In this document: piece after piece, positions 9,733 through 62,967 of the stretch
Layout: each line of letters starts with the position of its first letter
How positions within the stretch are numbered: the first letter of the stretch is position 1
DNA from: Deltaproteobacteria bacterium
Lineage (GTDB): Bacteria > Myxococcota_A > UBA9042 > DTJE01
Assembly: GCA_029547805.1 (NCBI GenBank)
Contig: JAKPOP010000015.1
Span: forward strand, 21,556-85,555
DNA: 64,000 nt
Direction of reading: 5' to 3'
Notes under the pieces: model-generated
Databases searched by the model: none
The model's input: the letters and a program-made list of their open reading frames with translations, nothing else
What the model was told of the DNA's origin: nothing
Program-made: the position numbers and the translations under genes

Positions 9733-9943
9733 CCCGAGCGATCTCCCTGGTTCTTCTGGCCGGTCCCCGGGCCCGAGGGGACGACGGCGACCCGAACACC
9801 GACGGAACCGGGCGCTCCCTCGAAAGGTCCCCCGATGCCGGCATCGACCGTCGGGGATTGTCAACGGAGAGGTCACCGGCCATGCTTCCCGGCAGCCTGG
9901 TACGGCGGTCGCCGAGGGTGCCCGCCCCGGGGCCTGGGGGTGG

Positions 9944-45802: not shown

Positions 45803-45872
45803 GTCCCGGAACAAGGTCCCTCGCCGCCTGCTTCCGCGATAGGATCGGACGGATTCCTTCGAGGAAAGACCG

Positions 45873-46289
45873 ATGGGTGCGGTGGTTCGCTTCAGTGCGT
45901 CGATCGAGGAGGACCTGTTCCGGCAGTTCGAGGAGGCAACCCGCCGCCGGGGCTATTCCAATCGATCCGAGGCCCTGCGGGACCTGATCCGGGACTCCCT
46001 GGTCCGGGAGGAGTGGGAAGGCGACCAGGAGATCGTCGGGACGGTCACGCTGGTCTATGACCACCACATCCGGGAACTCTCGGACCGCCTCACGGCCCTG
46101 CAGCACGACCATCACCGCGTGATCCTGTCGGCCATGCACGTCCACCTGGACCATGACAACTGCCTGGAGGTCATCGCGGTGAAGGGCCGGGCCTCGAAGG
46201 TCCAGAAGATCGCCGACGCCCTGATCGGTACCCGGGGAGTCAAGCACGGCCGCCTGACGGCCACCACCACCGGCAAGCGCCTCAGATAG
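45873..46289 (+). CDS. nikR: Nickel-responsive regulator NikR (ribbon-helix-helix plus ACT-like metal-binding domain)
   Basis: RFSASIEEDLFRQFEEATRRRGYSNRSEALRDLIR is the RHH domain. HHIRELSDRLTALQHDHHRVILSAMHVHLDHDNCLEV carries the His/Cys Ni-site residues. Confidence 0.9.
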   Translation: MGAVVRFSASIEEDLFRQFEEATRRRGYSNRSEALRDLIRDSLVREEWEGDQEIVGTVTLVYDHHIRELSDRLTALQHDHHRVILSAMHVHLDHDNCLEVIAVKGRASKVQKIADALIGTRGVKHGRLTATTTGKRLR

Positions 46290-47752: not shown

Positions 47753-48364
47753 CTACTCCCGTGGCTTCTCCCCGGTCACCAGGTAGCGCCGTTCCGTGTC
47801 TTCCATCGTCCGGACCTGGAACCCGACGGTCTCCAGCAGCGCCGCGGTCTGGTCCCCTGGCGCCAGCAGGTCCGATCCCACGGGGCCTCCCTTGCCCTGG
47901 TGGATCTCATTGACCCGCTGCCGGGAGATCAGGTGCCAGACGTGCAACAGGCCGCCGGGCCGGAGCACCCGGAAGACCTCCCTGGCCACCCCGTCCGGAT
48001 CTCGGAAGTGGGGCCATACGCCGAGGCAAAAGACCCGGTCGCACCGGCCATCCCCGATGGGCAGCCGGCAGGCGTCGGCGACATTCCAGGACACGCGCCC
48101 ATCGTGGATCTTCTCCCGAGCGACGGCGATCATCGCCGGGGAAAAGTCCACCGCCACCACCCGGCCCTCCGGCGAGAGGCAGTCCAGGATCGCCCGGGTC
48201 AGGTTGCCGGTGCCGCACCCGATATCCACCACCGTCTCCCGAGGCCCCACGCCGAGTTCCGACAGGCCCTCCTGGAGCAGCAGGCGCAACCGATCCAGGT
48301 CCTCCCATCCGTCCCAGTCCCGGGCGATGGCATCGAAGAAGGCCACTCTGGGGTCATCAGGCAT
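47753..48364 (-). CDS. Class I SAM-dependent methyltransferase
   Basis: Motif I is VVDIGCGTGNLT. Also present: VVAVDFSPAMI and LRPGGLL. It is embedded inside the ECF transporter operon and overlaps the upstream gene by 8 nt. Confidence 0.85.
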   Translation of the reverse strand: MPDDPRVAFFDAIARDWDGWEDLDRLRLLLQEGLSELGVGPRETVVDIGCGTGNLTRAILDCLSPEGRVVAVDFSPAMIAVAREKIHDGRVSWNVADACRLPIGDGRCDRVFCLGVWPHFRDPDGVAREVFRVLRPGGLLHVWHLISRQRVNEIHQGKGGPVGSDLLAPGDQTAALLETVGFQVRTMEDTERRYLVTGEKPRE

Positions 48365-48908
48365 CGGTTTCCTCCAGGGAATGGGGCTCGCCGGTCCGCC
48401 CCAGGGATCGCCGGGACGCCCGAACCACCGGCGGAATCACCGCCATCATGAGCAGGATCCCAGGCCACCCGCTCAGGAAGGAGACCCCGGCCAGGAAGGA
48501 CGCTGGCAGGTCGATCCACCACGAGAAGGCATAGACCAGGCCCACCTGCAGCAGGCGCCCTCCCGCGAGCACCGGGGCCAGCACGAGCCACTCCGGGACC
48601 CGGGGCCACCGGTGGGACACCACCGAGATCACCAGCGCCATGGCCCCCAGTTCCAGGGCCATGAAGACCGCCACCGGAGGATAGAACGGCGGCATCCCGG
48701 TGGCCGCCCCGGACAGCAGGGGCGTCACCAGGGCCGTGACCGCCGCAGCCGCAGGCCCCACGAAGAACGGCAGCGTGCACAGGGGCAGGTACATGGGCAT
48801 GAAGACGGACCCGAGGTGCAGCAGGTGGAACAGCACCGGCAGCAGCAACGCCGCAGCCCCGAAAAGGCCGCACCAGGCCAGTTCCCGGGGCGTCAACCGA
48901 CCGCTCAT
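48357..48908 (-). CDS. Small polytopic membrane protein, putative ECF substrate-capture (S) component (family unassigned)
   Basis: It has ~6 hydrophobic segments (GLFGAAALLLPVLFHLL, PLCTLPFFVGPAAAAV, PVAVFMALELGAMALVI...). The start at ATG 48908 overlaps the TonB-receptor stop (ATGA). It is not a canonical CbiM (no MHI..G N-terminus). Confidence 0.55.
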   Translation of the reverse strand: MSGRLTPRELAWCGLFGAAALLLPVLFHLLHLGSVFMPMYLPLCTLPFFVGPAAAAVTALVTPLLSGAATGMPPFYPPVAVFMALELGAMALVISVVSHRWPRVPEWLVLAPVLAGGRLLQVGLVYAFSWWIDLPASFLAGVSFLSGWPGILLMMAVIPPVVRASRRSLGRTGEPHSLEETDA

Positions 48909-50818
48909 CCGCCCAACCCCACCTTCAGGCCCGCCAGGACGTGGAACCCGGGCATCTCGTAGCCCCGGATGTATTCGTACTTCCGATTCATCAGGTTGCG
49001 AAGGACCAGCCAGGGCTCCAGGGTCCAGTCCTTGCCAGGGGGCTCCAGGCGGTAACGCACCGCCAGGTCCAGGAAGAAGGGGTCCGGGATCGGTTCCCGG
49101 CGGTAGTTGGCCATGTAGAGGCCATGCACCCACTCGCCGCTGACCTCCCCTTCCAGGCGATGGGAACCCCACCGGTGTCCCAGCGTAGCGGCGAAGTCCA
49201 GCATCGCCTCGGGATTCTGGCGGGTGTAGCGGCCGACCCGCTGCCAGGACCCGGCCACCGTCGCCCCGAAGGGTCCCAGGTCCCGGACTCGGACCCGCCC
49301 CTCGAGGCCCCAGACCGTGTAGGCATCGATGTTGACCACCTCAGCGGCCGGCCAGGACCCGAAGTACCGGATCAGGTTCCGGGCCTGCGATCGATAGGCG
49401 GTCAGGGAGACCTCCAGGTGCCGGAAGTCCTCGTAGCCCAGCGTGGCGTCCCAGTTCAGGGAGGTCTCGGGCCGCAGGTCCGGGTTCGCGACGGGATAGG
49501 GCAGATAGAGTTCCCGGATCGTCGGCTGGCGGTAGTTCCGGGTGACCCGGGTGCGCACGGACCATCCCCGCCAGAAGTTCCAGCGGACCCCGGCCTTCCC
49601 GAGCCAGAGGAACCCCCATCTCAGGCTGTAGAGTTCCCGGGACCCGACCACCAGGGACAGCCCCTGGACGGGCCGCCAGAGGACCTGTTGCCAGGCCGCC
49701 AGGTCCACCATCGCCCGGACATCCGTCGCGGTCCCCTGGATGCGGTTGCGGACCTCCCCGTCCATGTCCTGGGCCTCAACCCCCCCCAGGACCTCCCAGT
49801 TCCGATGTGGCCGCCAGCAGACCTCGCCCCGGCCACCCAGGGTCCAGTCCAACGACTGGAATCCATCATGGAGCCGGTGGCGACCCAGGGTCGCGTAGGG
49901 CAGCAGGGTCACCCGGAGCCCCGGGCGCTGGTACTCGAGGGCCCCCGAGAGGTTGTCCCTCCAGACATCGAAGGTGTGGTCCGTGAAGGGATGCTGGACC
50001 GTGCCGGGGTCACCGCCGGTGACGTGGACCGCCTTGTTGCGCAGCACCAGGGACCACCCCGGGGCGAGCCGAAGGCGCCCGGCGCTCTGGATCACCAGCA
50101 CGCTGCCGCCGGCCCCGTCCCGGTGGCCATCGGTTCGCATCCCATGGAGGGCGAAGGCCCCCTCCCATCCATCCTTCCGTCCCAGGGCCGTCACGGTGCC
50201 CTGGAGGGTCGCAAAACTGCCGTAGGCGGCGTCCGAGCGTACCTCCCATCCATCCTCGGGCAACCAGCGGCTCCGGAGCACGATGGCGGCCCCCATCGCG
50301 TTGCTGCCGTAGAGCACCGAGTCGCCGCCCTCCACCACGACGGCCTGGTCGATCAGGTCCGGGACATAGGCATCCGGAAGGGGATGTCCGAAGATGCCCT
50401 GGACGTCGGGCACGCCGTCCTCGACCACCAGGACCTGGGTGTTGGGGCTTCCTCCGAGCCCCCGGACCGTCAGGCCCCCGGCGGCGCCGCTGGCAACCCC
50501 CGCGGGCCCGACACCGCGCCGAGTGACGTGGATGGACGCCGATTCCTGGGCCAGGGCCTCGAGCAGGGTCGGTCTGGGGCTCTCCCGCAACCGCTCGCCG
50601 GGAACGGCCACCTGGTCCTGGGTCTGGTCCGGCGACACGGGCCGCGAAGCCTGGATCACGGTCTGGTGGTCCGGCGCCGCACCGGGCGTCGGCACGGCAG
50701 CATCCCCCGGCTCCTCCCCCTCCTCGGGCGGCGGGGACGGGGCCTCCTCGGGGGATCCGGCCCTGGCCGGCGGACCCAGCACCAGCAACAGGAACACCAG
50801 CCACGGAGCGCCGCGCAT
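48905..50818 (-). CDS. TonB-dependent outer-membrane receptor
   Basis: The signal peptide is MRGAPWLVFLLLVLGPPARAG. Plug motifs include LLEALAQESASIHV, GLTVRGLGGSPNTQVLVVEDGVP and VVVEGGDSVLYGSNAMGAAIVLRSR. The start is at Met 50818. Confidence 0.88.
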   Translation of the reverse strand: MRGAPWLVFLLLVLGPPARAGSPEEAPSPPPEEGEEPGDAAVPTPGAAPDHQTVIQASRPVSPDQTQDQVAVPGERLRESPRPTLLEALAQESASIHVTRRGVGPAGVASGAAGGLTVRGLGGSPNTQVLVVEDGVPDVQGIFGHPLPDAYVPDLIDQAVVVEGGDSVLYGSNAMGAAIVLRSRWLPEDGWEVRSDAAYGSFATLQGTVTALGRKDGWEGAFALHGMRTDGHRDGAGGSVLVIQSAGRLRLAPGWSLVLRNKAVHVTGGDPGTVQHPFTDHTFDVWRDNLSGALEYQRPGLRVTLLPYATLGRHRLHDGFQSLDWTLGGRGEVCWRPHRNWEVLGGVEAQDMDGEVRNRIQGTATDVRAMVDLAAWQQVLWRPVQGLSLVVGSRELYSLRWGFLWLGKAGVRWNFWRGWSVRTRVTRNYRQPTIRELYLPYPVANPDLRPETSLNWDATLGYEDFRHLEVSLTAYRSQARNLIRYFGSWPAAEVVNIDAYTVWGLEGRVRVRDLGPFGATVAGSWQRVGRYTRQNPEAMLDFAATLGHRWGSHRLEGEVSGEWVHGLYMANYRREPIPDPFFLDLAVRYRLEPPGKDWTLEPWLVLRNLMNRKYEYIRGYEMPGFHVLAGLKVGLGG

Positions 50819-50828
50819 CCGGGCCTCC

Positions 50829-51248
50829 TCAGTGCCCGTAAGGGCCCGGAATGGAAAAATCCTGCTCCAGCGCGTCGCCCCCCTGGACCTCGATGACCCG
50901 GAAGTCCCCGGCGTCGACGGTCCACTGGGCCACGGTCTGGTAGTTGAACCACAGGGGCCCGGTGGTTGCCTCCTCGGGGTCCATCCGTTGCTCCGCGAAC
51001 TGGTCCAGGTCCAGTTTCTGGAAGTGCACCTGGTCCCGACCCGGAAGGCAACGCCTGGGGACCGTCGCATCCCCGTAGTTGAGGGTCGCCTCCCAGCGGC
51101 ACCCGTTGAAGGAGGGATTGCGGATCACCACCGCGGTGTCGATGCGGTTCACGACGACGACCTCCGGGTAGCGGAGGTCGCAGCCCAACAGGCCCCCGAT
51201 GGCCAGCAGCCAGAGGCGAGACCGGGGAACCTGGCGGCGGCGTTTCAC
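50829..51248 (-). CDS. Small lipoprotein, unknown function
   Basis: The GTG start at 51248 gives VKRRRQVPRSRLWLLAIGGLLGC (a lipobox). It is a ~139-aa Cys-containing protein directly upstream of the TonB receptor. Confidence 0.5.
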   Translation of the reverse strand: MKRRRQVPRSRLWLLAIGGLLGCDLRYPEVVVVNRIDTAVVIRNPSFNGCRWEATLNYGDATVPRRCLPGRDQVHFQKLDLDQFAEQRMDPEEATTGPLWFNYQTVAQWTVDAGDFRVIEVQGGDALEQDFSIPGPYGH

Positions 51249-51258
51249 CCGCGCCTCG

Positions 51259-51756
51259 CTACTCTGGCAGGCACTGGGTGTTCTCCGTGCGCTGGGCATA
51301 GGGCTTGAATCCGTACTCGGGGTACAGTTCCAGGATGCGGTTATAGACCGTCTCCGGAATGGGCGGAACCCCCTCCGGCGGGCAGGGGCCCTGGTGGCTG
51401 GGCTTCCCGATGGCAATCGTCCGGGTCTGGCCGTCCACCACCTCCTCCTCATTTTTCGATGCGATGGGCAGGCAGTTCTCCGGGTGGCACTCCGGGTCGT
51501 CCCAGGCGGCGACCATGAGCACGTAGTCCAGCCCCGGCTCGACCTTCTGGGGCGCCGAGGTCTCTCCGATGCCGATCCGGCCGAACTCCACCCCCAGGTA
51601 GGTGGCCCGGCAGATCGTCCACGGGGGCTTGAACCCCTCCACTGCAGGGTTGTTGAAGTCATTCTGGATCTGCACCGTCGCCGACTCGGTACCCGTCTCG
51701 CACCCTGCGACGGCCACGGTCCACAGCCCCAACGCCACGAGCATCCGCCTGTCCAT
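51259..51756 (-). CDS. Small lipoprotein, unknown function
   Basis: MDRRMLVALGLWTVAVAGC (a lipobox). It is 165 aa with several Cys residues and is the first gene of the lipoprotein / TonB receptor / ECF operon. Confidence 0.6.
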   Translation of the reverse strand: MDRRMLVALGLWTVAVAGCETGTESATVQIQNDFNNPAVEGFKPPWTICRATYLGVEFGRIGIGETSAPQKVEPGLDYVLMVAAWDDPECHPENCLPIASKNEEEVVDGQTRTIAIGKPSHQGPCPPEGVPPIPETVYNRILELYPEYGFKPYAQRTENTQCLPE

Positions 51757-52013: not shown

Positions 52014-54179
52014 TCAACGTCCCGGCGGGCGGAACGACGGGGATCGCGTGAGGCCGTCCCACCGGTGATCCAGCAGGGCCAGCAACAGCCCCAGCAGACG
52101 ACGGTCCCCGGGTTCGCCGGCGGGAGTCTCCCGGAGCAGGCACAGGCGAAAATGTCGGGACGCCAGGAAGGCCTCGGTCCGACTCTCGCCCCCGAACAGG
52201 TCCCCCTGCAAGACCCGATCCCCCACCCGGATCCCCAGGCGCAGGGCCCCCTCCTCCGATCCCTCCACCGGGCGCAGAGAGGCGATGCGGAGACTGCCGA
52301 GGTCCCCGGGAAGCCCCCGGGCCAGCACCCGAGCCACGTCCCGGACCACCCGGGCCTCCCGTGGCAGGGTCTCCTCGCCCACCAGGGGGTCGAGCCAGTC
52401 GGCCACCGGGGTCGCCCCCCTTTCCTGGGAGGCCCTCAGCACCACCCTGGGGTCCTCCCGGAGCCGCCGATGCCGGGGCCGGGGGTCCTCGTCCAGGGGG
52501 CATCGCCGGGCCGCCTCGGCCAGAGCACCGGACAGCAGCGCCCGGGGGTCCTGCTCCACGCCGTCCCGTTCCACCCGGTCCAGCAGCACCAGTCCCAGGT
52601 CCAGCGGCAGGAACCGGGCCCCCTGGACCAGATCCCGGATCCACGGGAAGTCCGGGTCGTCGCGGAAGTACCAGCACTCCGCTCCGTCGTTCCAGGCCGC
52701 GAAGGCCCGGACGAACCATCGGAAGAAGCAGGCAGTGCGCGGGTCCAGGAAGTGCCAGGGAAGGGCCCCGTGGATGTCCTCGAACAGGGTCACCGGCACA
52801 TAGAGGATTCCCCGGTCCTCGTAGTGGTCCCGGAGGATGCCTCCCTGGGCCCGTGCCAGGGCGGTGATGGGCGTCGTGCGGACCAGGAGCAGGGTCGACA
52901 CCATCCAGAAGCCCGTCGGGTCCAGGCCCAGCCGCCGCCCCTCCTCCAGGTTGATCCGGATGTCCTCCGGGAGGGTCCAGGGGGTGAAGAAAATGAAGGA
53001 CCAGGCCGATCGTCCGCCGTCGCCGTGGAAGAACTCGAACCCCTCGGGGAAGCGCTGCTGCCACTCCTGCTGCAACGCGATGACCCCCTCGATGTGGTCC
53101 ATGGTCAGGCGCTTGTTGAACCGGGCCATCTCCGCCGGAGAGAAGGTCTCGATGCCCATGATCAGGGTCTTCAGCACGTGCCCCGCGGCCAGCATCCCGG
53201 GAATCGCCGCCTCGATGGCCTCCCGCTCGCGCAGCACATCATCCAGCCGAGGAGCGAAATAGAACGTCGAGGGGGGCATCTCCAGGTCCAGCACCATCCG
53301 ACAGAAGCGCTGCACCTCCGAGAGCATGTCGTAGTCAAAGACCATGTAGGCATTCTTGTTCCGCAGCGACCGTCCCGGCGGCGCGGCCAGGATGCGCCGC
53401 AACTGGCTCTCGATCAGGGCCAGGCGATCGACGCGGGGCGAGTGCAGGGGCGGTGTCGGGGAGCCGCCGCAATAGGAGCAGCCCGTGATGACTCGACACT
53501 CCTTGAGGTCCACCCCGTCGAAGATCGGGTTGTCGGCCACCGACGGCTTGCCCCCGCAGGAGACCCCGCTGACCAGCACCAGGTTGCTCCCGGCGGCGGC
53601 ACTCTCCTGGTCCAGGGGCTCCGCGTCGTAGTGCGGCGTCACGTGTTCCACCAGGTACCGGGTCGCCTCCTCGGGGGCCTCGATGCCCAGGAATCGCAGG
53701 AACCAGTAGGGACGGGCGTAGTACCAGGGATTGTCCCGCGGATGAAGGGTCCGGGCCACCTGGGCCAGCACCGGGTCCGGACCCTGGAGATACTCCTCGC
53801 GACGGAAGTGGAATTCCTTGCCGGCGGGCATCGACAGGATGACCAGCCCCGGCGGGGTTGCGCCCCGGATGGCCTCCTCGGTCTCCCGGGAGAGGTCCTC
53901 CGTGACCACCAGATGGGTCGGGGCGAAGTCCCGAAGACGGCGGGCCAGCGTCTCCAACTGTCCCGGTTCCAGGTCGGCGTGGAGCAGCCGCCCCTCCTGC
54001 CGATCCTCATGGCGACGGATCCGGGAGAGGGCGAACCACCACTGGGCCTCCACCCCGTGCTCTCGGGCCGTCCCCAGCAGGAACGGGAAGAACATGCTCC
54101 GCTCGTTGACCCGGTCGTACTGGACCAGGAATTCCAGCAGGACCAGCCTCGGGGGCGCTCCCGCCTCGGGTCGTTCCAT
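52014..54179 (-). CDS. Large radical-SAM-like protein (N-terminal Rossmann/B12-binding-like region, CX5CX2C motif, long unique C-terminal region)
   Basis: The 721-aa ORF has coding-like composition. The Cys cluster is KECRVITGCSYCGG (53469..53498). A radical-SAM-core-like stretch is TLIMGIETFSPAEMARFNKRLTMDHIEG. It is the last gene of the minus-strand nitrogenase-like operon. The family assignment is tentative. Confidence 0.55.
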   Translation of the reverse strand: MERPEAGAPPRLVLLEFLVQYDRVNERSMFFPFLLGTAREHGVEAQWWFALSRIRRHEDRQEGRLLHADLEPGQLETLARRLRDFAPTHLVVTEDLSRETEEAIRGATPPGLVILSMPAGKEFHFRREEYLQGPDPVLAQVARTLHPRDNPWYYARPYWFLRFLGIEAPEEATRYLVEHVTPHYDAEPLDQESAAAGSNLVLVSGVSCGGKPSVADNPIFDGVDLKECRVITGCSYCGGSPTPPLHSPRVDRLALIESQLRRILAAPPGRSLRNKNAYMVFDYDMLSEVQRFCRMVLDLEMPPSTFYFAPRLDDVLREREAIEAAIPGMLAAGHVLKTLIMGIETFSPAEMARFNKRLTMDHIEGVIALQQEWQQRFPEGFEFFHGDGGRSAWSFIFFTPWTLPEDIRINLEEGRRLGLDPTGFWMVSTLLLVRTTPITALARAQGGILRDHYEDRGILYVPVTLFEDIHGALPWHFLDPRTACFFRWFVRAFAAWNDGAECWYFRDDPDFPWIRDLVQGARFLPLDLGLVLLDRVERDGVEQDPRALLSGALAEAARRCPLDEDPRPRHRRLREDPRVVLRASQERGATPVADWLDPLVGEETLPREARVVRDVARVLARGLPGDLGSLRIASLRPVEGSEEGALRLGIRVGDRVLQGDLFGGESRTEAFLASRHFRLCLLRETPAGEPGDRRLLGLLLALLDHRWDGLTRSPSFRPPGR

Positions 54180-54238: not shown

Positions 54239-55060
54239 TCAGACGTCCAGGTCCCGCAACAAGCCCATCAGTTCCCGCCGCTCCAGGGGGACCGGCAGCG
54301 GCAGGTCCGGGGGCAGCGGGGCCCGGACTGCCTCGGCCAGGGCACGGAACCGCTCCGCCGCCTCGCTGGTCGGGGCATCGTCAATCACGGTCCGGTTGCG
54401 CCGCTCTGCCTCCCGGACCTCGCGACTCCAGGGAATGAAGCCGAGCACCCGGGCCTTCAGGCGCCCGGCAAAACCCCTCAAGGCCTCCTCGATGGCCGGG
54501 TCCAGGGCCTTCACGTTGAAGACGATCCCTGCGAGTTGCACCCCGTCGTCCACATGGTTCAGCAGGGCCTTGCAGACGTTGTTCGCGGCGTAGAGGGCCA
54601 TCGGTTCCGCCGAGGCCACGATCACGACCCGGTTGCCCAGGCCGTAGCGCAGGGGAGCCACGAAGCCTCCACAGACCAGGTCCCCCAGGACGTCGAACAA
54701 CGCCACGTCGTACGGCCACGAGAGGAGATCCCGGGCCTCCAGCCAGTCGAAGAGGTTCGCGACGCCGCGACCCGCGCACCCGACCCCCGGGTCCGGGCCC
54801 CCGATCTCGATGGTGTCCACCCCCGTGGGCCCGGGCACGATCACCTCGTCGGGACGGCGCCTGTTCAGGGACCGGTCCGCGATGAAATCCAGCACTGCCG
54901 GGCCCTCCCGGTCCCCCCGCAGACGAAGGGACGAGTCCATCTTGGGGTCGCACCCCACGTGGAGCACCCGGAGCCCGGCCTCGCGCCACGCGGCGCTCAG
55001 GTGCACCGCCACCGTGGACTTGCCGATTCCCCCCTTGCCGTAGAGCACCACCCGCAACAT
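54239..55060 (-). CDS. NifH/BchL-family ATPase (nitrogenase-like reductase component 2), copy 1
   Basis: MLRVVLYGKGGIGKST (P-loop), GCDPKMDS (switch I), GGPDPGVGCAGRGV and FDVLGDLVCGGF (the two [4Fe-4S] Cys ligands), and YAANNV. The start is at Met 55060. Confidence 0.9.
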   Translation of the reverse strand: MLRVVLYGKGGIGKSTVAVHLSAAWREAGLRVLHVGCDPKMDSSLRLRGDREGPAVLDFIADRSLNRRRPDEVIVPGPTGVDTIEIGGPDPGVGCAGRGVANLFDWLEARDLLSWPYDVALFDVLGDLVCGGFVAPLRYGLGNRVVIVASAEPMALYAANNVCKALLNHVDDGVQLAGIVFNVKALDPAIEEALRGFAGRLKARVLGFIPWSREVREAERRNRTVIDDAPTSEAAERFRALAEAVRAPLPPDLPLPVPLERRELMGLLRDLDV

Positions 55061-55079: not shown

Positions 55080-56375
55080 TCAGAGCGGGGTTCGAAACCC
55101 GCGCACCAGGGCCGCATCCCTCCACTGGGACGCCTCGACCAGCCGATCCGTGAGCCACAGCGCCCCCTCGAATCCCAGCCAGGGCTCCGGCCGCGTGGGA
55201 TGGCGCAGGAAGTTCGGGTACCCCAGGGGAAGCAGCCCCGGAACCGGCAGCGGATCCGGGAAGGCCGTCGATGCGATGCGCAGGTCGGCCTCCGGCTCCG
55301 GAACCTCGTCATGCGGCGCCTCGAAGACCCAGGAGCCGTCCACCACCGGGTCCCCGTCCAGGTGCTCCCGTCTCCCCAGGACGTCCACGAGCACCGTCTC
55401 CACCCCCAGGTCATCCAGGAAGTCCCGAAGTCCCCGGACCAGGAAGGGGTCCCCCTGGATCACCGCCTGCCGCCCGTGCAGGAATCGAAAGGCCCGGTCC
55501 CGGACCAGTGGCACGACCCGGGTCAGTTCGCGGTCCAGGAAGGTCTCGCCCGTCTCCCGCAGCCCCAGGGCCTCGGCGACGGCCCGGACAAAGGCGCCGG
55601 TCCCCCGCAATCCCACCGGGAGCGGGGCCTGCACGCAGGGAACTCCCAGGCGTCCCGCGAGGATCCGCCCCGCCGCCCGCCCGTATGGAAGGGTCACCAC
55701 CGCCGAGGCCCGCCCCGCCCGGGCCAGATCGGTGACCAGGCGGCCGTCGAGCCACAGAGAGGCGATGTCCGCCCCGACACCACGAACGAGCCGGTAAATC
55801 TCGTCGACGTTGCCCAGGCAGTCCCCCTCCCGCCGATCCATCAGGTGCCCCACCACGGCCACCTGCCCCGGCAGCGGTCCCCCAGGGTCCAGGTCCAGGT
55901 CCGCCGCCAGCCGCTCCAGCACCCGGGAGTGACCGTCGATCCAGTCCGCCTCGAGGGACTCGGAAGGGACCCGGACCACCCGGGCATGCCCCTTCGCCTG
56001 GGCCCGCCGGCGATGCTGCTCCAGCGGCTCGTTGAGCAGGTGGTTGAAGTCCATGCTGGACACGACGACCAGACGAAAGCGGGGGTCCTGGGCAGCGCCC
56101 TCCAGCACCTCGCCGATGTCGCGGCTGCGGTTCAAGGCCATGCTGGGAACGACGCTGGTGTTGAACCGGATGTCGGTGTGGAGCAGGCGACCGGGCCCGT
56201 CGGCCCGCACCAGGTCCGAGGCGGGGTCGTGGGCCATGTGCAACTCGGCCTTCTGGACCAGACAGTAGGGACCGTCGACCACGAGGGCCGCGTCCCGGAT
56301 GGCGCTGACGGCGAGGTAGAGTCCATTCAGAAACGGGAGGTTGTGGGGGATCGGGGGCCGGGAGGCGCGAGTCAC
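55080..56375 (-). CDS. Nitrogenase component-1-like subunit, small (431 aa), copy 1
   Basis: It is a paralogue of 61663..62967 and has an Oxidored_nitro-like architecture (VVDGPYC..., VAVVGHLMDRREGD..., LPYGRAAGRILAGRLGVP...LPVGLRGT). The GTG at 56375 overlaps the upstream stop (GTGA). Confidence 0.75.
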   Translation of the reverse strand: MTRASRPPIPHNLPFLNGLYLAVSAIRDAALVVDGPYCLVQKAELHMAHDPASDLVRADGPGRLLHTDIRFNTSVVPSMALNRSRDIGEVLEGAAQDPRFRLVVVSSMDFNHLLNEPLEQHRRRAQAKGHARVVRVPSESLEADWIDGHSRVLERLAADLDLDPGGPLPGQVAVVGHLMDRREGDCLGNVDEIYRLVRGVGADIASLWLDGRLVTDLARAGRASAVVTLPYGRAAGRILAGRLGVPCVQAPLPVGLRGTGAFVRAVAEALGLRETGETFLDRELTRVVPLVRDRAFRFLHGRQAVIQGDPFLVRGLRDFLDDLGVETVLVDVLGRREHLDGDPVVDGSWVFEAPHDEVPEPEADLRIASTAFPDPLPVPGLLPLGYPNFLRHPTRPEPWLGFEGALWLTDRLVEASQWRDAALVRGFRTPL

Positions 56376-58498
56376 CGGGCACCTCCGGCCAGGTAGGTCG
56401 CAAAGGCCCGCAGAGGCAGGTGTTCCGCTGCCCGAAGCCACCGTTCCAGGGACCTCCGGGCCCCCTGGAGGCCCATCTCCAGGTCGTGTTCCGAAAAGAC
56501 CCCCTTGCCGGCCCGGGTGACCCGGGGGTCGGCGGTGAAGTGGGAATAGACCAGGGAGACATCCTGCGCGGCCATCTTGCGAGTCAGGTCGTCGGGGTCT
56601 TCGAAGAACTGCATCGACAGGCGTCGGGCCAGGGGGTGACGTGCCAGTCGCTCCTGCAGGAAGGCCGGGTCATTGCCCTCGGGCCAGACCAGGAAGCGAA
56701 CCAGGAAGCCCATCTCCAACAGCACGTCCAGCATCGAGAAGGCATTCACCGGGGTGGTGTCCAGCAGGAGGTCCAGTTCCTCCAGGTCCGTCACGAAGGC
56801 CAGCACATGGCCCGAGGCCCGTCCTCGCAGGGTCTCCCAGGCATCGCGGCTTCGCTGATCCAGGGTGTCCACTGCCTGGAGCGCGGCCTCCGGATCCGGG
56901 AGATGACGAGCGACCTCCCTCAGCCAGGCCAGCGTTCCCTCCCGTCCGAACGGGGCCCGGGGGCGCACGAGCCGCACCGGAAGCCCGTCGAAGGCCAGTT
57001 CGGAGATGTCCGACAGGGCCGTCTGGCGGGCCCAGACCAGCACCGAGGCCTCGGCGATTCGTTGAAACTCCTCCCGGCCCACCCGGGGGAGCACGACCCC
57101 CAGGGGTCTGGCACCGATGGTTCCTGTGAGTTCCAACAGTTCCCTGTCCTCTTCTGAAGAACCACCGCCCAGCACCGCGACTCCCCGGGGGTCCCGCGGG
57201 GCCTGGGCGGGAGCCGCGGCCTCCAGGCGATCCCGGAGGAGGCGAGAGGTGTAGCCCCCGAAGTCGTTGGCCGCCCCCAACCAGTAGAACCGGGCCCGCG
57301 TCCTGGCTGCGGCCTTCCGGAACAGTGGCACAGGATTGTCCCCGATGACGTCCGGCAGGCACCCCGTCATCAGCACCACGGCGTCGCGGTCCGGATCCGC
57401 AACGGCTCCCTCGATGGCCTGCTCCAGTCGCCGCATCGTGTGGCCAGCCAGCACCACGGGTCCATGGAGGTCCGTCATGCGGACGTCGCACTCCCGGTGC
57501 CAGCCGCCGACCTGGACGTCCCGGCCATAGCGGAAGAAGGTCCCGTCCGGAGGAACCCAGGGGGACTCTGAGAAGACGCACTCCCGGGACTCGTGGATCA
57601 CCAGCGAGTCCTTGGGCCCCGGCTGGAACAGGTTCACGATGCAGCGGCTCAAGGGATAGTGGAAGCGCCGCCAGCGATCCGTGGCGTCCCAGCGCCGGAT
57701 GAACGCCTCGTGGCGAACCCGCGGGTAGAAGCGCTGGAGGTAGGAGTCCGGGGCCAGCGGAGGCGCGGCGGAATCCTGCACCGGCGGGTCCTCGACGCCC
57801 CCCGGGGGCACCCGGAGGCGGGCTCCCCGGACCAGCAGGCGGGCGACGGCGAAGCCGGCCAGGCGCTCCGGCTGTTCCGCGAGGCGGCCCCGTTCGCCTG
57901 GAGGCCGAGGATCCTGGACCACGCGAAACGACAGTTCCCGGAGGCCGCAGAGGCGAACTCCCGGCGGGTCCCCGGGAACCCGGATCGGCGCCAGGCGGAA
58001 GACCAGGGGAGGTTGGTCCGGCTGCTGGAACCGGAACTCCAACCCGTCCGGCACCGGACGAAAGAGGTCCACCAGCCGGTAGGTCCCCCAGGTGGTCACG
58101 CCGGGGATCAACCACGGGGACAGGACCGCGGCCCATGTCTGCTCCGTGAACGGCAGAACGGCCTCCTCCCCAGGGCCCCATCCCAGGAGGGGCTCCGTGG
58201 AGGCCAGTGCCGCCAGGCGGTCCGGGAAGTCCCCCAGGTCCTCGGGGGCGAGGTCATGGAGCCAGAGGAGGCCCGGCAGTCCCGGATGGGACAGCGACGG
58301 GTCCACCGGAACTCCAGGGGGAACCCATCGCACCGCGGCCCGTCGCCCGGCTCCCAGGAACCGGAAGGTCACGGAACCGTCCCGCTCCAGCAGGACCTGG
58401 CGACAGGCCATGCCCGGAAGCCCCAGGCGATCCGCCCAGAGGGGCAGGCAGTCCCAGAGTCCCGGCGTCCCTTCCGTTCCGCGAGGCGGTTCCTGCAT
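56372..58498 (-). CDS. Nitrogenase component-1-like subunit, large (708 aa, with a ~297-aa N-terminal extension), copy 1
   Basis: The C-terminal ~410 aa has NifD/E/BchN-like motifs: VIHESREC, RECDVRMTDLHGPVVLAG and VLMTGCLPDVIGDN. I chose the start at Met 58498 (MQEPPRG); the ORF extends to 58687. Confidence 0.75.
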   Translation of the reverse strand: MQEPPRGTEGTPGLWDCLPLWADRLGLPGMACRQVLLERDGSVTFRFLGAGRRAAVRWVPPGVPVDPSLSHPGLPGLLWLHDLAPEDLGDFPDRLAALASTEPLLGWGPGEEAVLPFTEQTWAAVLSPWLIPGVTTWGTYRLVDLFRPVPDGLEFRFQQPDQPPLVFRLAPIRVPGDPPGVRLCGLRELSFRVVQDPRPPGERGRLAEQPERLAGFAVARLLVRGARLRVPPGGVEDPPVQDSAAPPLAPDSYLQRFYPRVRHEAFIRRWDATDRWRRFHYPLSRCIVNLFQPGPKDSLVIHESRECVFSESPWVPPDGTFFRYGRDVQVGGWHRECDVRMTDLHGPVVLAGHTMRRLEQAIEGAVADPDRDAVVLMTGCLPDVIGDNPVPLFRKAAARTRARFYWLGAANDFGGYTSRLLRDRLEAAAPAQAPRDPRGVAVLGGGSSEEDRELLELTGTIGARPLGVVLPRVGREEFQRIAEASVLVWARQTALSDISELAFDGLPVRLVRPRAPFGREGTLAWLREVARHLPDPEAALQAVDTLDQRSRDAWETLRGRASGHVLAFVTDLEELDLLLDTTPVNAFSMLDVLLEMGFLVRFLVWPEGNDPAFLQERLARHPLARRLSMQFFEDPDDLTRKMAAQDVSLVYSHFTADPRVTRAGKGVFSEHDLEMGLQGARRSLERWLRAAEHLPLRAFATYLAGGAR

Positions 58499-58755: not shown

Positions 58756-59586
58756 ATGCGAGAGATCGTGATCGCCGGCAAGGGGGGCATCGGCAAGTCC
58801 ACGCTGGTGACCAACCTGGCCGTGCTGGCGGCCCGGCGGGGCCTCAAGGTCCTCCAGGTGGGCTGCGACCCGAAGCACGACTCCTGCACCCGGCACTTCG
58901 ACCGACGGTTGCCCACGGTGATGGACCTCTTCAAGGAGAAGGGCCGGGTGGACCGGCAGGACATCGAGGGCATCCTGGCCCAGGGCCGCACCGGGGTCTT
59001 CGGGGTCGAGGCGGGGGGACCCTCCCCCGGGGAGGGCTGCGCCGGGAGGGCCATCTCCCTGCTGCTGGAGTTCATGCGCAGCGCAGGGGACCTCTTCGAC
59101 CGCTTCGACCTGGTCCTTTACGACCTCCTGGGGGACGTGGTCTGCGGGGGCTTTGCCGCCCCGATCCGCCGAGGCCCCGACACCGCCATCTATCTGGTCA
59201 CGTCGGGAGAGATCCTGCCCACCTACGCCGCGAACAACATCGCCCAGGGCATCCGGAACCTGTCCCGGCGCGGGGGCGGACGCCTGGGGGGCATCCTGGC
59301 CAATCTCCGGGGGACTCCCGGCGAGCGGCAGATCCTGGAACGCTTCGCCGCGGGTCTTGGCACCCAGGTGACGGGCTGGATCCCCCGGGATCCGGCGGTC
59401 TTCGCCGCCGAGCAGGCCCGGCGCACGCTGATGGAACACGCCCCGGACTCCCCGGCCGCCCGGGCCATCGAGGCCCTGGCCCGGAGGATCCTCGACGAGC
59501 CGCCGGACCTGGTCGTGCCGACCCCCCTGGAGGAGGAGGCCTTCGAGGCCCTGTTCTCGCCCTGGCGGGAAGGGGAGGTTCGATGA
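58756..59586 (+). CDS. NifH/BchL-family ATPase (nitrogenase-like reductase component 2), copy 2
   Basis: MREIVIAGKGGIGKST, VLQVGCDPKHDS, GGPSPGEGCAGRA, YDLLGDVVCGGFAAPIR, SGEILPTYAANNI and RLGGILAN. GGGGAGG is upstream of ATG 58756. Confidence 0.9.
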   Translation: MREIVIAGKGGIGKSTLVTNLAVLAARRGLKVLQVGCDPKHDSCTRHFDRRLPTVMDLFKEKGRVDRQDIEGILAQGRTGVFGVEAGGPSPGEGCAGRAISLLLEFMRSAGDLFDRFDLVLYDLLGDVVCGGFAAPIRRGPDTAIYLVTSGEILPTYAANNIAQGIRNLSRRGGGRLGGILANLRGTPGERQILERFAAGLGTQVTGWIPRDPAVFAAEQARRTLMEHAPDSPAARAIEALARRILDEPPDLVVPTPLEEEAFEALFSPWREGEVR

Positions 59587-61655
59587 TGCCCCTGGACCAG
59601 GTCCTCCGACGGCTCGTGCAGGCCCTCCGGGATCAGGGGATCCCGGCGACCTGGGCCGCGCCGACACTGGCCGGACATCTGGTGGTGGCCATCGAGGCCC
59701 CCGGGGGGGGCTGGAGGGCCGTGGTGTCCATCCGCCCGCCCCGACCCTCGGAGGGCGTGGTGGCCCGGGTCGGGGATCTGTTCCTCCGGGGCATCGGACC
59801 CAAGGAAGGCCCGTCGCCGGCCGACTTCCAGGGCTTCGTGGCCGCCTGGCGCCGGGTTGTCGCGGGGGACCTGGCCCCCTTCCTGGACCTCCACAACCGG
59901 GAGGTCCGGGAGGTGGAGGCGACCCCTGCAGGACTGTCGCGGCTGCTGGCCTGGATGGTCCACCCGGGTGCCCCGTTGCTGACGGGCTGGGTCCTGCGGG
60001 AGGTCCGGCGGGCCCCGGGACCTCGACCGCGCCTGCTGCTGGAGATGGCCCGGGAGGGGCAGGAGACCCCGGAGGTCCTCCTGGCCCTGGACCCCGAGGG
60101 GCCCGAGGGACCGGAGGAGGAGGTCCTGGCGACACTGCCCCTCGGGCTGCTGGTCCGCCGGGTCGCGGGGGCGACCGCCGCTGCAGACCGGGATCGGGTC
60201 CTGGCCGAGTCGGCCCTGGTCCTTGTCCTGAGGATGTCGATGCCCGCGTCCCTGCGATGGGGTCCCTGGCCCGCCCCGGAGAACCCGGCCCCCCGTCCGC
60301 CCGCAAGGCGCCAGGACGACACGCTGATCGTCCACAGCTACCGCACCGACCACGAGTGGCACGTCCCCCGGAGTCGCTTTTTCGGCACCTGGGGCGACAA
60401 GGACTGGTTCATCCTGCTGGCACTGCTCGACCGCCCGACCATGAACGTCTTCCACGGAAACCGGGAGTGCCAGCAGGTCCGGCAGCCCCTCAGCGACCGC
60501 TTCGCCCACGGTGCCAACCCCTTCCACCCCTCCCGTCGCCACTGGGCCTGGATGGTGACCCACACCCGATTCACCGACACCGACGACCGGGCGGCGATCT
60601 TCGGCGGCGAGGACCGGCTCCAGGGCCTGCTGGACCGGATCGAGTCCGAGGGCCCCGGCCAGGAGGTCCGGGTGCTGGTGGGCTGCGATGCCGAGGTGGT
60701 CGGGGACGACGTTCCCGGGGTCTGCCGGATGGTCCGATCCGAGGGACGCAACGTCGCCTGCTTCAACCCTCCCCTGCCCCGCTTCACCGATGCCTCCGAC
60801 CGGAACTGGTGGCTGCAGTTCCTGCAGGACCGGGACCGGGGCGTGGCGCCGGAGCCAGGAACCGTGAATCTGGGGGGATTCCAGTGGCCTGATCACCCGG
60901 CCATGGCAGAAACGGAGGCCCTCCTGGCCCGGGTTGGAGTGCGGGTCGCCTGCCGGATGCTCCCGGGCCACTCGCCCGACCTGCGGACCGCCGTGGGCGC
61001 CGGCCAGGTGACCGTGCTGTCGCCGTGGTTCCCGGTCCAGGAGGTGCTGGGGTCCGCCCTGGCCCAGGAGGGACTGCCGTTTCAGACGCTGCCGCTGCCC
61101 TACGGGGAAGGGCCGACCCGGGCCTGGCTGGCGGCGACGGCCCGGGCGGCGGGACGGGATCCCCCGACAGAGGCCTCCTGGGAGGACATGACGCGCCCCT
61201 GGCGGTCGGCCCTCGACGAGATGCGGATCCGGGCTGGGAAGGTCCGGGTCGCCCTGGTGGCCGACTGGGGCACCGCGACGGAGATGTGCGACCCGGCCTT
61301 CTTCTTCGGGCTGGACCCGCTGGCGTTGCTGCAGGACCTGGGCTTCCCGGTGGTCGTGTTGGGCCGGGAGGCCCACGACGTCGTGGAGCGGACCCGAAGA
61401 CAATGGCCGGAGGCGCGCCTGGAAGCGGTGGAGATGGACCCGGTCCACGGGGATGTCGTCGCCCGGGTCCGGGAGGTCCGGCCGGACCTGGTCTATTGCG
61501 ACCGGGAGGATGCCACCGCCGTGAAGGCCGTGGGCGCGGTGCCCTTCGGCATCGGGGACCTGGAGCCGGGGCTGGCCGGGGCGACCCGGACCCTGCGTCG
61601 GCTCCTGGCGAGGTCGGGGCTCCAGATCTACCGGCGCTACCCGGTCTGGAAGTGA
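59583..61655 (+). CDS. Nitrogenase component-1-like subunit, large (690 aa, with a ~286-aa N-terminal extension), copy 2
   Basis: VFHGNREC, FTDTDDRAAIFGGEDRL (compare the NifD TTD..E.DIVFGG motif) and VLVGCDAEVVGDDV. There is an ATGA overlap with the NifH-like stop. It is a paralogue of 56372..58498. Confidence 0.75.
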   Translation: MMPLDQVLRRLVQALRDQGIPATWAAPTLAGHLVVAIEAPGGGWRAVVSIRPPRPSEGVVARVGDLFLRGIGPKEGPSPADFQGFVAAWRRVVAGDLAPFLDLHNREVREVEATPAGLSRLLAWMVHPGAPLLTGWVLREVRRAPGPRPRLLLEMAREGQETPEVLLALDPEGPEGPEEEVLATLPLGLLVRRVAGATAAADRDRVLAESALVLVLRMSMPASLRWGPWPAPENPAPRPPARRQDDTLIVHSYRTDHEWHVPRSRFFGTWGDKDWFILLALLDRPTMNVFHGNRECQQVRQPLSDRFAHGANPFHPSRRHWAWMVTHTRFTDTDDRAAIFGGEDRLQGLLDRIESEGPGQEVRVLVGCDAEVVGDDVPGVCRMVRSEGRNVACFNPPLPRFTDASDRNWWLQFLQDRDRGVAPEPGTVNLGGFQWPDHPAMAETEALLARVGVRVACRMLPGHSPDLRTAVGAGQVTVLSPWFPVQEVLGSALAQEGLPFQTLPLPYGEGPTRAWLAATARAAGRDPPTEASWEDMTRPWRSALDEMRIRAGKVRVALVADWGTATEMCDPAFFFGLDPLALLQDLGFPVVVLGREAHDVVERTRRQWPEARLEAVEMDPVHGDVVARVREVRPDLVYCDREDATAVKAVGAVPFGIGDLEPGLAGATRTLRRLLARSGLQIYRRYPVWK

Positions 61656-61662
61656 GGTACCG

Positions 61663-62967
61663 ATGCCGCCGCCCTTCGATGCGACCCTGAGGCTCTCCCC
61701 GACCTTCATGGACGGGGTCTTCCTGTCGGTGGCGGCCATCCCGGACGCGGCGCTCCTCTATGTCGGATCCACCTGCATCAACGAGCACTTCCGCCACAGT
61801 CTGCAACTGGCCGACTGGGGCCAGGACCTCCTGCGGGATGGCCAGCAGAGCCGACTGCTGCTGACCTTCAGCGACAAGACCGTGGCCCCGATGGGCGTGG
61901 GTCACCAGGTCGATCTGGTGGTCCGGCGGATGTTGCCGACGATGCGCCCCGCATTGCTGGTCCTGGCCGAACTCACCCGCGTGACGCTGGCCGGCGAGGA
62001 CCTGGAGACGCTGGCGGAGTCGGTCACGGGGGAGACGGGGCTCCCGACGATCGCTGCGACGAGCCGACTCCTGGTCCGGGACTGGCAGACGGCCTTCCGG
62101 CGCATCCTGGTCGGGCTCGCGGAGGGGATCCCAGATGCGGCCTTCGAGGGAGGCCCGGTTCCGGGAACCGTGGCGGTGATCGGCCACCTCTTCCAACGAA
62201 ACGAGGCGGATCAGCACGCCGATGTCCGGGAGTGGAAAACCCTCCTGCGCATGGCCGGGCTGGAGCCCCTGTCCATCTGGCTGTCCCGGGAGACGGTCCC
62301 CGAGCTGCACCGTGCGGCCCGGGCCTCGTGGCTGGTGGCATTGCCCCAGGGGCGGGAGGCGGCGCGTCGCATCGCCCGGCGGTCCGGAGCGCAGGTGATT
62401 GACCTGGACCTGCCGATCGGGCTCCAGGGCACCGAGGAGGTCGTATTGCGGCTGGCCGATGCCAGTGGGAATGAGGGCCCGGCCCGGACCCGCCTGGACG
62501 AGGCATTGCGCGCGGTGCTGCCCCTGGTGGATCAGGCTGCGGGTCACCGGCTGGCGGGACGGAGGGTGGCCCTGGCGGCACTGCCGGACTGGTCGGATGG
62601 CACTGCGCGGATGTTCCGGGAGGACTTCGGGCTCGACGTCGCCGCGACGACGCGACGTTGTCGGCTGATCACCCCCGAAGAGGAGGCGGCGGGGGTCTCC
62701 CAGGACCTCCTCCGGGACCACGACCCCAGCGTGGCGTCCTGGAATGAGGTCCTGCGACGGGCGATGGACGAGGGTCCCCTGGACCTGATCGTGGGCAGTT
62801 CCTGGGAGCGAAACGCCCTTCAGGGTCTCGTGACGAAGGTTCCCTTCGTGGAGTTCGGGTATCCCTGTCTATCCTGGCACGACCTGGTGGGCCTCCCGGG
62901 AATGGGACTGGGGGGCGTGGTGGCCTGGGCCCATCGCCTGTGCGCCGCACTGGAGGACCGTTTCTGA
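61663..62967 (+). CDS. Nitrogenase component-1-like subunit, small (434 aa), copy 2
   Basis: YVGSTCINEHF (compare the BchN/ChlN VGSRTC motif), VAVIGHLFQRNEAD and LPQGREAARRIARRSGAQ...LPIGLQGT. It is a paralogue of 55080..56375. Confidence 0.75.
   Translation: MPPPFDATLRLSPTFMDGVFLSVAAIPDAALLYVGSTCINEHFRHSLQLADWGQDLLRDGQQSRLLLTFSDKTVAPMGVGHQVDLVVRRMLPTMRPALLVLAELTRVTLAGEDLETLAESVTGETGLPTIAATSRLLVRDWQTAFRRILVGLAEGIPDAAFEGGPVPGTVAVIGHLFQRNEADQHADVREWKTLLRMAGLEPLSIWLSRETVPELHRAARASWLVALPQGREAARRIARRSGAQVIDLDLPIGLQGTEEVVLRLADASGNEGPARTRLDEALRAVLPLVDQAAGHRLAGRRVALAALPDWSDGTARMFREDFGLDVAATTRRCRLITPEEEAAGVSQDLLRDHDPSVASWNEVLRRAMDEGPLDLIVGSSWERNALQGLVTKVPFVEFGYPCLSWHDLVGLPGMGLGGVVAWAHRLCAALEDRF

Follow-up and report, generated by a model that had tools for sequence, protein, structure and literature searches.

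What kind of sequence precedes the nitrogenase-like core of two large proteins from a Deltaproteobacteria bacterium, and what might it contribute there? The question is raised by a 64,000-nt stretch of contig JAKPOP010000015.1 (the window, G+C ~70%), the last 12 kb of which consists of two divergently transcribed nitrogenase-like gene sets. Each of them comprises an H gene for a NifH/CfbC-like ATPase together with D and K genes for two component-1-like subunits, and is called an HDK set below. The D genes encode nitrogenase component-1 homologues of 690 aa (D1; open reading frame (ORF) from the ATG at 59583, plus strand, 59583..61655) and 708 aa (D2; ORF from the ATG at 58498, minus strand, 58498-56372). 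The original prediction had noticed an N-terminal extension of about 290 residues on both proteins. Our results showed that the extra part is a mobile module, termed N-dom, and not a fixed part of the nitrogenase fold, as judged from its varied fusions to other enzymes and its absence from one D2-type relative.

Since spurious long ORFs are common in all frames of a window with ~70% GC, it had to be considered that the true start codons lie downstream, with the extension being untranslated or a high-GC pseudo-extension. The G+C content at third codon positions (GC3) in the D1 frame was 0.86-0.94 from 59583 onward, and upstream of 59583 the GC-rich position followed the frame of H1, the frame switch coinciding exactly with the D1 start; the GC3 signal was weaker over the first 110 bases of D2. 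A GGGGAGG ribosome-binding site lies a few bases upstream of the D1 ATG. A shared ATGA (59583-59586) contains both the stop codon of H1 and the start codon of D1, a shared GTGA (56372-56375) contains the stop codon of D2 and the likely start codon of K2, and translation appears to be coupled in both operons. A word-indexed homologue search covering 5.8 billion proteins returned 10 D1-type proteins (the window's own included) and 12 D2-type proteins, and a third such search with a 70-sequence alignment as query gave the same 10 proteins and added nothing. The nine further D1-family proteins (39-79% identity) and the 11 relatives in the D2 family (38-78% identity) all have lengths of 683-730 aa and align from their first residues, so that the extension is kept in every aligned member of both families; the ~700-aa D proteins are full-length genes and not mis-started. 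The motifs LDLHNRE, PLGxLxR and SRFFGTWGD are invariant in the D1 interval marked in the original prediction (59583-60440), as are DG, GP and QxER..GF in the D2 extension, while Met287 (MNVFHG), a possible later start of D1, is replaced by Leu or Pro in the orthologues. Comparison of the window with a syntenic Myxococcota contig (L004, 78-79% identity) revealed zero indels and a ratio of nonsynonymous to synonymous substitution rates (dN/dS) of 0.45 (D1) and 0.39 (D2) for the extensions and of 0.22 (D1) and 0.21 (D2) for the cores, which places N-dom, on this comparison, under purifying but relaxed selection. The GC3 pattern, the ATGA coupling of D1 to its upstream gene, conservation down to 38-39% identity at equal lengths, dN/dS below 0.5 and the lack of conservation of Met287 all place the extension inside the gene. 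Together with the confident structure models and the 144 related proteins described below, they leave an annotation artefact barely conceivable and, for practical purposes, excluded.

The boundaries of N-dom were drawn from AlphaFold2 (AF2) models and sequence alignments. The D1 model, computed for a 286-residue construct with a 22-sequence alignment, had a mean predicted local distance difference test score (pLDDT) of 82.5 and a predicted template modelling score (pTM) of 0.76, with 10-residue block means of 72-97 up to residue 230 and 46-58 beyond; the D2 domain model (39 sequences) reached a pLDDT of 92.1 and a pTM of 0.88. Both models share a predicted topology of two lobes, each built of a helix, five to six antiparallel strands and a second helix. 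The first lobe of D1 is predicted to consist of helix 4-17, five strands and helix 79-94, and the second of helix 115-122, six strands and helix 201-219. Alignment of lobe against lobe with hhalign (50% probability, E 1.6e-4, 54 columns) is suggestive only of an ancient internal duplication. In D1, N-dom spans residues 1-225 (59583..60257, plus strand), as supported by AF2, GC3, the 10 family members and an N-dom hidden Markov model (HMM) match of E 1.5e-31. It is followed by a Pro-rich linker of ~20 residues (residues 226-245, WGPWPAPENPAPRPPARRQD; 60258..60317, plus strand), marked by the drop in pLDDT and by a length that varies in orthologues, e.g., by 26 inserted residues in P0009. After the linker come a conserved segment (residues 246-286, DTLIVHSYRTDHEWHVPRSRFFGTWGDKDWF...; 60318..60440, plus strand) with W259, S264, F266, F267, T269, W270, G271, D274 and F276 invariant in the D1 family, and then the component-1-like core (residues 287-690 and the stop codon; 60441..61655, plus strand; PF00148 E 1.8e-20). 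In D2, N-dom covers residues 1-232 (57803..58498, minus strand), as supported by AF2, an N-dom HMM match of E 3.4e-52 and hhalign against D1. Sequence alignments assign the Pro-rich linker (residues 233-249, ~17 residues) and a pre-core segment (residues 250-300, containing Cys286) to 57599..57802 (minus strand), the linker boundary being set by sequence because the D2 model ends at residue 232; the core comprises residues 301-708 and the stop codon (56372..57598, minus strand; PF00148 E 2.1e-13 at residues 340-689). Segment 246-286 of D1 aligns between the families with segment 250-300 of D2, and this conserved stretch is probably the start of the nitrogenase-like core. Therefore, an extra domain is indeed present, but with a folded part of ~225-232 residues and a truly extra part of ~225-245 residues (or ~230-245), not the 286-297 first proposed. 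On these models N-dom is predicted to be an independently folding unit on a flexible tether.

The two extensions had been described as bearing weak but visible similarity. By BLASTP, the D1 and D2 extensions gave nothing significant (best E 0.2), and the 28% identity between full-length D1 and D2 is limited to the last 190 residues. In contrast, hhalign with family profiles restricted to the N-terminal parts aligned 196 columns of them at a probability of 91% (E 1e-6), superposing LSRLLAWMVHPGAPLLTGWVLREV and WAAVLSPWLIPGVTTWGTYRLVDL, the strings originally given as an example. A joint MAFFT alignment agreed with this pairing, and a profile built from both families recovered both families. The sequence comparison thus indicates that the D1 and D2 extensions are homologous; the similarity is real, though at ~14% identity it is detectable only with profiles, which is the sense in which it is visible.

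To determine to which proteins N-dom is joined, the joint N-terminal profile was run exhaustively with HMMER (E <= 1e-3) on 1.84 billion representatives. This yielded 144 proteins, 95 of them at E <= 1e-10, which were classified by local HMMs and Pfam. The architecture of N-dom followed by a nitrogenase-like core was found in ~116 of the 144 representatives (median 697 aa), the other fusions being few, and 69 of 70 sampled N-dom proteins had a PF00148 match. Five representatives carry N-dom in front of Radical_SAM (P0044, P0053, P0070, P0090 and P0093), among which P0053 and P0093 also possess SPASM and P0070 is HemN-like, with CxxxCxxC and GGGTP motifs; two more show a weak Radical_SAM match after N-dom (P0055 and P0158). 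In another two, N-dom is C-terminal and follows a DUF483-like segment, which was recognised by a Pfam DUF483 match in P0092 and by a shared motif in P0049. The first 490 residues of P0049, a complete gene within its contig and seen in two assemblies, resemble X721 (E 5e-25), a 721-aa protein of an unannotated family that is encoded next to the HDK sets of the window (52014..54179, minus strand) and accompanies HDK sets in several loci. When the N-dom HMM was run on all ORFs of the window and of the loci fetched to that point, only D-type proteins and P0049 were matched. The original prediction had suggested substrate delivery, scaffolding or a regulatory function specific to this system; the domain is not peculiar to D1 and D2, being found in at least 116 nitrogenase-like representatives as well as in radical SAM proteins and a fusion with a relative of X721. 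In addition, one representative combines NifH, N-dom and core: P0088 (958 aa, from a Joint Genome Institute metagenome) is a single polypeptide with the order NifH-like ATPase, N-dom, nitrogenase-like core, and represents either a genuine fusion of H and D or a gene prediction that ran across overlapping genes.

N-dom can also be missing. A D2-type protein of locus L022 (9920-11449, plus strand), 44% identical in the core, begins in the linker and lacks N-dom. Only ~225 nt upstream, an X721-like gene begins on the opposite strand and leaves no room for the domain, so N-dom was lost or split off in this lineage; such a loss is easier to reconcile with an accessory module than with a catalytic part. 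The front part of a 616-aa D protein of locus L028 is shorter than N-dom and unrelated to it. Apparent stand-alone N-dom proteins (P0033, P0105, P0126 and others) were located at contig ends. One of them (L025, 337-1080) ends in a TAA stop that is followed in frame by the linker-like sequence FDDPPAEYDPPDKD, and on another contig (L026, 1659-3229) a NifH-like gene precedes a 228-aa N-dom gene ending 60 nt before the contig end. These apparent stand-alone genes could be split genes, sequencing errors, read-through or fragments.

No motif had been assignable to the extension at first reading, and the database searches bore this out. The front parts of D1 and D2 matched nothing in Pfam or NCBIfam, and Pfam searches at E <= 10 with 70 full-length proteins and 39 isolated domains produced no recurrent family and no RRE/PqqD match (RRE, RiPP recognition element). 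A domain-only profile found nothing among PDB sequences, and full-length profiles found nitrogenase-family chains only, aligned in the core only: solved NifD/K, NifE, BchN/B and Mar-type chains align beyond profile position ~318, with at most ~140 residues preceding the aligned part. In agreement with the original prediction for the canonical proteins, the solved NifD/K, BchN/B and Mar-type chains thus have no counterpart of the domain, and neither do those of NifE. The closest solved cores to D1 and D2, all without a comparable N-terminal domain, are those of NifE, BchN/BchB and the methylthio-alkane reductase MarDK, which we presume to be the protein in 9d9u/9fmg (the database label is just 'Nitrogenase'). 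Foldseek likewise returned no match at E <= 1e-3, either for the D1 and D2 models against 350,542 PDB chains or for one model against the BFVD viral structures. The best matches were the StfQ di-domain SRPBCC cyclase (E 0.04) and the NFACT-N domain of RqcH/NEMF (E 0.1); the top matches had template modelling (TM) scores of 0.06-0.25 (0.15-0.17 query-normalised) and a root-mean-square deviation of 14-18 Å. SRPBCC/START and NFACT-N are helix-plus-antiparallel-sheet folds and gave the best, although non-significant, matches of both N-dom models. The hits to StfQ/START, NFACT-N, RnlA and lipocalins, with TM <= 0.3 and no E <= 1e-3 against a criterion of E <= 1e-3 and TM > 0.5, were not accepted as evidence of kinship. 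As far as searched, N-dom is undescribed and without recognisable relatives, and literature searches found no description of it.

These non-significant matches bear on whether N-dom is a regulatory sensor, which would have a small effector as its ligand and would control electron transfer or the docking of the H protein. The flexible linker, the placement of N-dom at the N-terminus and the hits to START/AHSA1 and lipocalin/FABP folds (E ~1-2, not significant) would suit such a sensor. However, no sensor family showed significant similarity, dN/dS lies above that of the core, the motifs differ between the paralogues, and it would be out of the ordinary for one sensor to be shared by nitrogenase-like, radical SAM and X721-like enzymes. 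We consider this role improbable, and infer from the modular distribution that delivery or recruitment is likelier than regulation.

The loci around the N-dom genes suggest a link between the window and a known group of nitrogenase paralogues. The layout of the window recurs unchanged in L004, and both HDK sets also flank an X721-like gene in L002, a distant contig from a metagenome (~40% identity), while a single HDK set with N-dom is present in L001 and L005-L008 (D1 type) and in L019-L024 (D2 type). X721-like genes adjoin HDK sets in L002, L004, L009, L019, L022 and L027. Three radical SAM genes, one of them HemN-like, and a methyltransferase gene are found in L013. The cluster represented by L027 (1-8815) and L028 (1-6623) reads in order two radical SAM genes, UbiA, a B12-type radical SAM gene (B12-rSAM), an X721-like gene and an N-dom-radical SAM-SPASM gene, followed on the other strand by a K-D-H set; this mixture of UbiA, B12-rSAM and nitrogenase-like genes recalls, by analogy, bacteriochlorophyll biosynthesis. 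In L011, a radical SAM-SPASM gene (8943-10058) lies directly upstream of a D-K-H set and overlaps the start of the set, and a gene for a thioredoxin/DsbD-like membrane protein is located just upstream of it on the other strand.

Group VI nitrogenase paralogues (NflH/NflD/NflK) were reported from Elusimicrobia, Gracilibacteria and fourteen aquatic Myxococcales, in every case with numerous radical SAM genes close by, of which some have B12-binding or HemN_C domains, and were predicted to reduce tetrapyrroles (Meheust et al., 2020, doi 10.1101/765248). A 2026 Chem Rev review (PMC13474568) lists no characterised member of the group and finds gene context to be of little help towards its substrates. 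The D1 relatives found in genome collections belong to Myxococcota and 'Deltaproteobacteria' metagenome-assembled genomes and one Elusimicrobia metagenome-assembled genome, a host range like that of Group VI. Further likenesses are the grouping of the H, D and K genes, which can be present more than once, the high divergence from NifD/K, whose full complement of P-cluster cysteines is not retained, and the many radical SAM genes in the related loci L011, L013 and L027 (four in L027). The window differs in having X721, and no recognisable radical SAM genes, beside its HDK sets. The window HDK systems likely belong to Group VI, and the fetched loci showed no overlap with the assemblies in Table S2 of Meheust et al. 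An enzyme clade of the Group VI type is already known and N-dom is, as far as searched, apparently undescribed; the two Group VI papers (doi 10.1101/765248 and PMC13474568) mention neither an N-terminal domain of the D subunit nor its occurrence on radical SAM enzymes.

What, then, could one domain do on nitrogenase-like, radical SAM and X721-like enzymes? A separate fold, a tether, relaxed selection, reuse on three unrelated catalytic scaffolds encoded in the same gene clusters and at least one loss are together the behaviour of an accessory recruitment module. The lack of a known family or fold match, combined with fusion to radical SAM enzymes of the same cluster type, inspired us to propose that N-dom is a pathway-specific adaptor, which would bind a pathway-wide target and present it to the fused catalytic domain; we rate this proposal as evenly poised between right and wrong. 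The target would be common to all enzymes of the pathway, namely a substrate, a carrier or a scaffold protein, and a candidate substrate would be a peptide or a tetrapyrrole-like molecule. The Pro-rich linker tethers N-dom to the catalytic body of the large subunit, and the target would be kept close to the catalytic domain that N-dom is fused to. N-dom is retained on both D paralogues of one locus, although the two copies of the domain are only ~14% identical. That N-dom binds or recruits something is inferred, as is any ligand. The UbiA, B12-rSAM and HemN-like neighbours would fit a tetrapyrrole-like substrate, and the SPASM fusions together with a position like that of an RRE would fit a peptide substrate.

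Several observations weigh against the adaptor proposal. The analyses pointed to no ligand, partner or binding site for N-dom; its single clade-wide invariant residue is Gly31 in D1 (Gly41 in D2), and the Foldseek searches support no binding-domain class. No precursor-peptide gene was recognised, and no N-dom was detectable by HMM search in the X721 of the window. The conserved motifs differ between LDLHNRE and PLGxLxR in D1 and DGxL, PGxTxWG and DxR in D2, so the D1- and D2-type domains may bind different things. N-dom also shows no conserved Cys/His pattern pointing to a cofactor or metal, and a domain for protein-protein assembly would be just as likely to show its modular distribution.

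The last point leads to the main rival explanation, according to which the N-doms would bind each other or K/H and join the enzymes in a multi-enzyme complex without contacting a substrate. The presence of N-dom on both D paralogues and the co-occurrence of two HDK sets in distant genomes (window, L004 and L002) agree with such a scaffolding role, as does its presence on several enzyme classes of the same clusters, and a two-lobed domain on a flexible tether, as predicted by the models, would suit docking. On the other side, N-dom is carried by many loci with a single HDK set (those listed above), ~14% identity and different motifs would be unusual for a homotypic interaction module, and one D2 relative does without the domain. 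We regard assembly as unlikely on balance, though well ahead of a regulatory role.

The missing Cys/His pattern bears most directly on a function in cluster or cofactor insertion, in which N-dom would act as a built-in chaperone comparable to NafY/NifY and NifX of nitrogenase, either supplying an Fe-S cluster or cofactor or keeping the apo-protein open. The fused nitrogenase-like and radical SAM enzymes identified are Fe-S proteins, three cysteines are invariant in the X721 family, and one N-dom family member gave a very weak Pfam Nitro_FeMo-Co match (E 0.3), all of which would be in line with an insertion aid. However, that match was not recurrent (1 of 70 members), the domain has no conserved Cys or His, and the NifX/NafY fold is unlike the antiparallel sheets between helices predicted for N-dom. 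We judge this function a shade more improbable even than the sensor.

The adaptor proposal finds its closest parallel in the RRE (PqqD-like), a small accessory domain that is likewise fused to several unrelated enzymes of one pathway. The RRE typically sits N-terminal to the radical SAM domain in known peptide-modifying radical SAM-SPASM enzymes, and N-dom occupies the same position in P0093 and P0053. The RRE is a winged helix-turn-helix of about 85-100 residues, unlike N-dom, which has ~225 residues in two predicted helix/antiparallel-sheet/helix lobes and no RRE/PqqD match in Pfam. A bolder form of the proposal, which we hold to be rather doubtful, is that N-dom represents a new substrate-recognition class marking a hidden biosynthetic pathway, in which the nitrogenase-like, radical SAM (SPASM-type and HemN-like) and X721 enzymes share one tethered substrate. 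Since N-dom stands in the place of the RRE in radical SAM-SPASM enzymes, this substrate might be a peptide made by ribosomes or an intermediate attached to a protein. If N-dom is a recognition module, the logic of leader or carrier recognition would extend to ATP-driven nitrogenase-like reductases; and if the substrate is peptide-linked, Group VI would contain the first such nitrogenase-like reductases, as opposed to those acting on a free tetrapyrrole or a small sulfur compound. Being common to D subunits and radical SAM enzymes, N-dom could be expressed alone to fish for a ligand, peptide or partner. Furthermore, its profile picks out the enzymes of the pathway in metagenomes more specifically than the Oxidored_nitro or Radical_SAM models.

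Additions to the component-1 fold are not new in themselves. The N-terminal extension of NifK and the C-terminal extension of AnfD are short and G/delta is a small separate subunit, and all of them pack on the core. True nitrogenases carry clade-specific additions to this fold (PMC13474568, section 8.2.2), and N-dom likewise defines a nitrogenase-like clade by its architecture, but it differs in being, according to the models, a separate 225-residue fold on a disordered linker that is reused on non-nitrogenase enzymes.

The catalytic parts to which N-dom is attached are divergent members of the component-1 superfamily, as indicated by PF00148 (Oxidored_nitro) in D1 and D2, a second subunit (K1/K2) and a NifH-type ATPase (H1/H2). 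PF00148 covers only residues 287-638 of D1 (73.6 bits) and 340-689 of D2 (50.4 bits), against a gathering cut-off of 28.6. The NCBIfam equivalog models of NifD, VnfD, AnfD and NifE scored 15-20 bits with D1, against cut-offs of 486-823, and did not match D2, and no NCBIfam model of BchN or BchY (DPOR/COR) or of CfbD was listed for either protein. The best PDB match of the D1 core was 9d9u/9fmg (E 1e-11, ~225 core columns), and the D2 core matched the nitrogenase alpha chain and NifE at E 2e-9 to 1.6e-8. Assignment to the Group IV-C MarD proteins found no support: the core match did not go beyond E 1e-11, and Pfam scans of the cluster proteins and ten flanking ORFs (34.6-64 kb) showed no NifB/MarB-type radical SAM partner.

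In nitrogenase, the P-cluster is bound by Cys62, Cys88 and Cys154 of the Azotobacter vinelandii (Av) NifD, and the iron-molybdenum cofactor (FeMo-co) by Cys275 and His442. D1 has only Cys296 and Cys368, of which Cys296 is nearly invariant and Cys368 invariant among 104 relatives. D2 has the invariant residues Cys286, Cys307 and Cys380, whose surrounding motifs correspond to those of the three cysteines that bind the cluster in NifD/BchN; their putative equivalence, and that of the D1 cysteines, to the Av NifD positions is based on the contexts HGxxEC and GCxxxxxGDD. At the first ligand position, D1 shows an invariant TWGDxD with Asp274 (60390-60410, residues 270-276) as compared with Cys286 of D2 (57635-57650). 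The D1 family thereby lacks the first ligand cysteine, which D2 keeps. The D1 and D2 complexes probably hold different Fe-S clusters.

The remaining genes of the two sets were annotated as follows. On the plus strand, H1 (58756..59586) is a NifH/CfbC-like ATPase matching the NCBIfam models nifH (E 3.8e-80) and CfbC (E 3e-77), both below the curated cut-offs, and K1 (61663..62967; PF00148 E 1.3e-28) is a second component-1-like subunit of 434 aa without an extension. On the minus strand, K2 (55080..56375; PF00148 E 1.3e-31), the second component-1-like subunit of that set, likely starts with a GTG that overlaps the D2 stop codon, and H2 (54239..55060) is a NifH/CfbC-like ATPase of 273 aa (nifH E 2.8e-64, below the cut-off). 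With the CfbC model, H1 scored 259 bits and H2 213 bits, against a cut-off of 402.

X721 matched nothing in Pfam, NCBIfam or PDB sequence searches. The family, represented by five relatives, has the invariant Cys208, Cys234 and Cys237 (C-x25-C-x2-C) and the motifs GIETFSxxExxRFNK and TPWT, and X721 is possibly a very divergent radical-SAM-like enzyme. Its assignment as a radical SAM enzyme was not adopted, given that Pfam and PDB offered no support and only the three invariant cysteines and the GIETFS motif spoke for it. A hidden N-dom lobe in the last 100 residues of X721 was also rejected: hhalign aligned it in register, but with E 0.01 and a probability of 4%. Pfam detected no Radical_SAM or NifB-type match in the cluster proteins and ten flanking ORFs (34.6-64 kb). 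Beyond X721, the window encodes a lipoprotein-like ORF (51259-51756, minus strand) and a TonB-dependent receptor (48905-51070, minus strand), both syntenic in L004, as well as a SAM-dependent methyltransferase (47753-48436, minus strand) and a NikR-type nickel-responsive regulator (45843-46289, plus strand). These genes flanking X721 are hints of an uptake of metal or of a metallated compound linked to the cluster.

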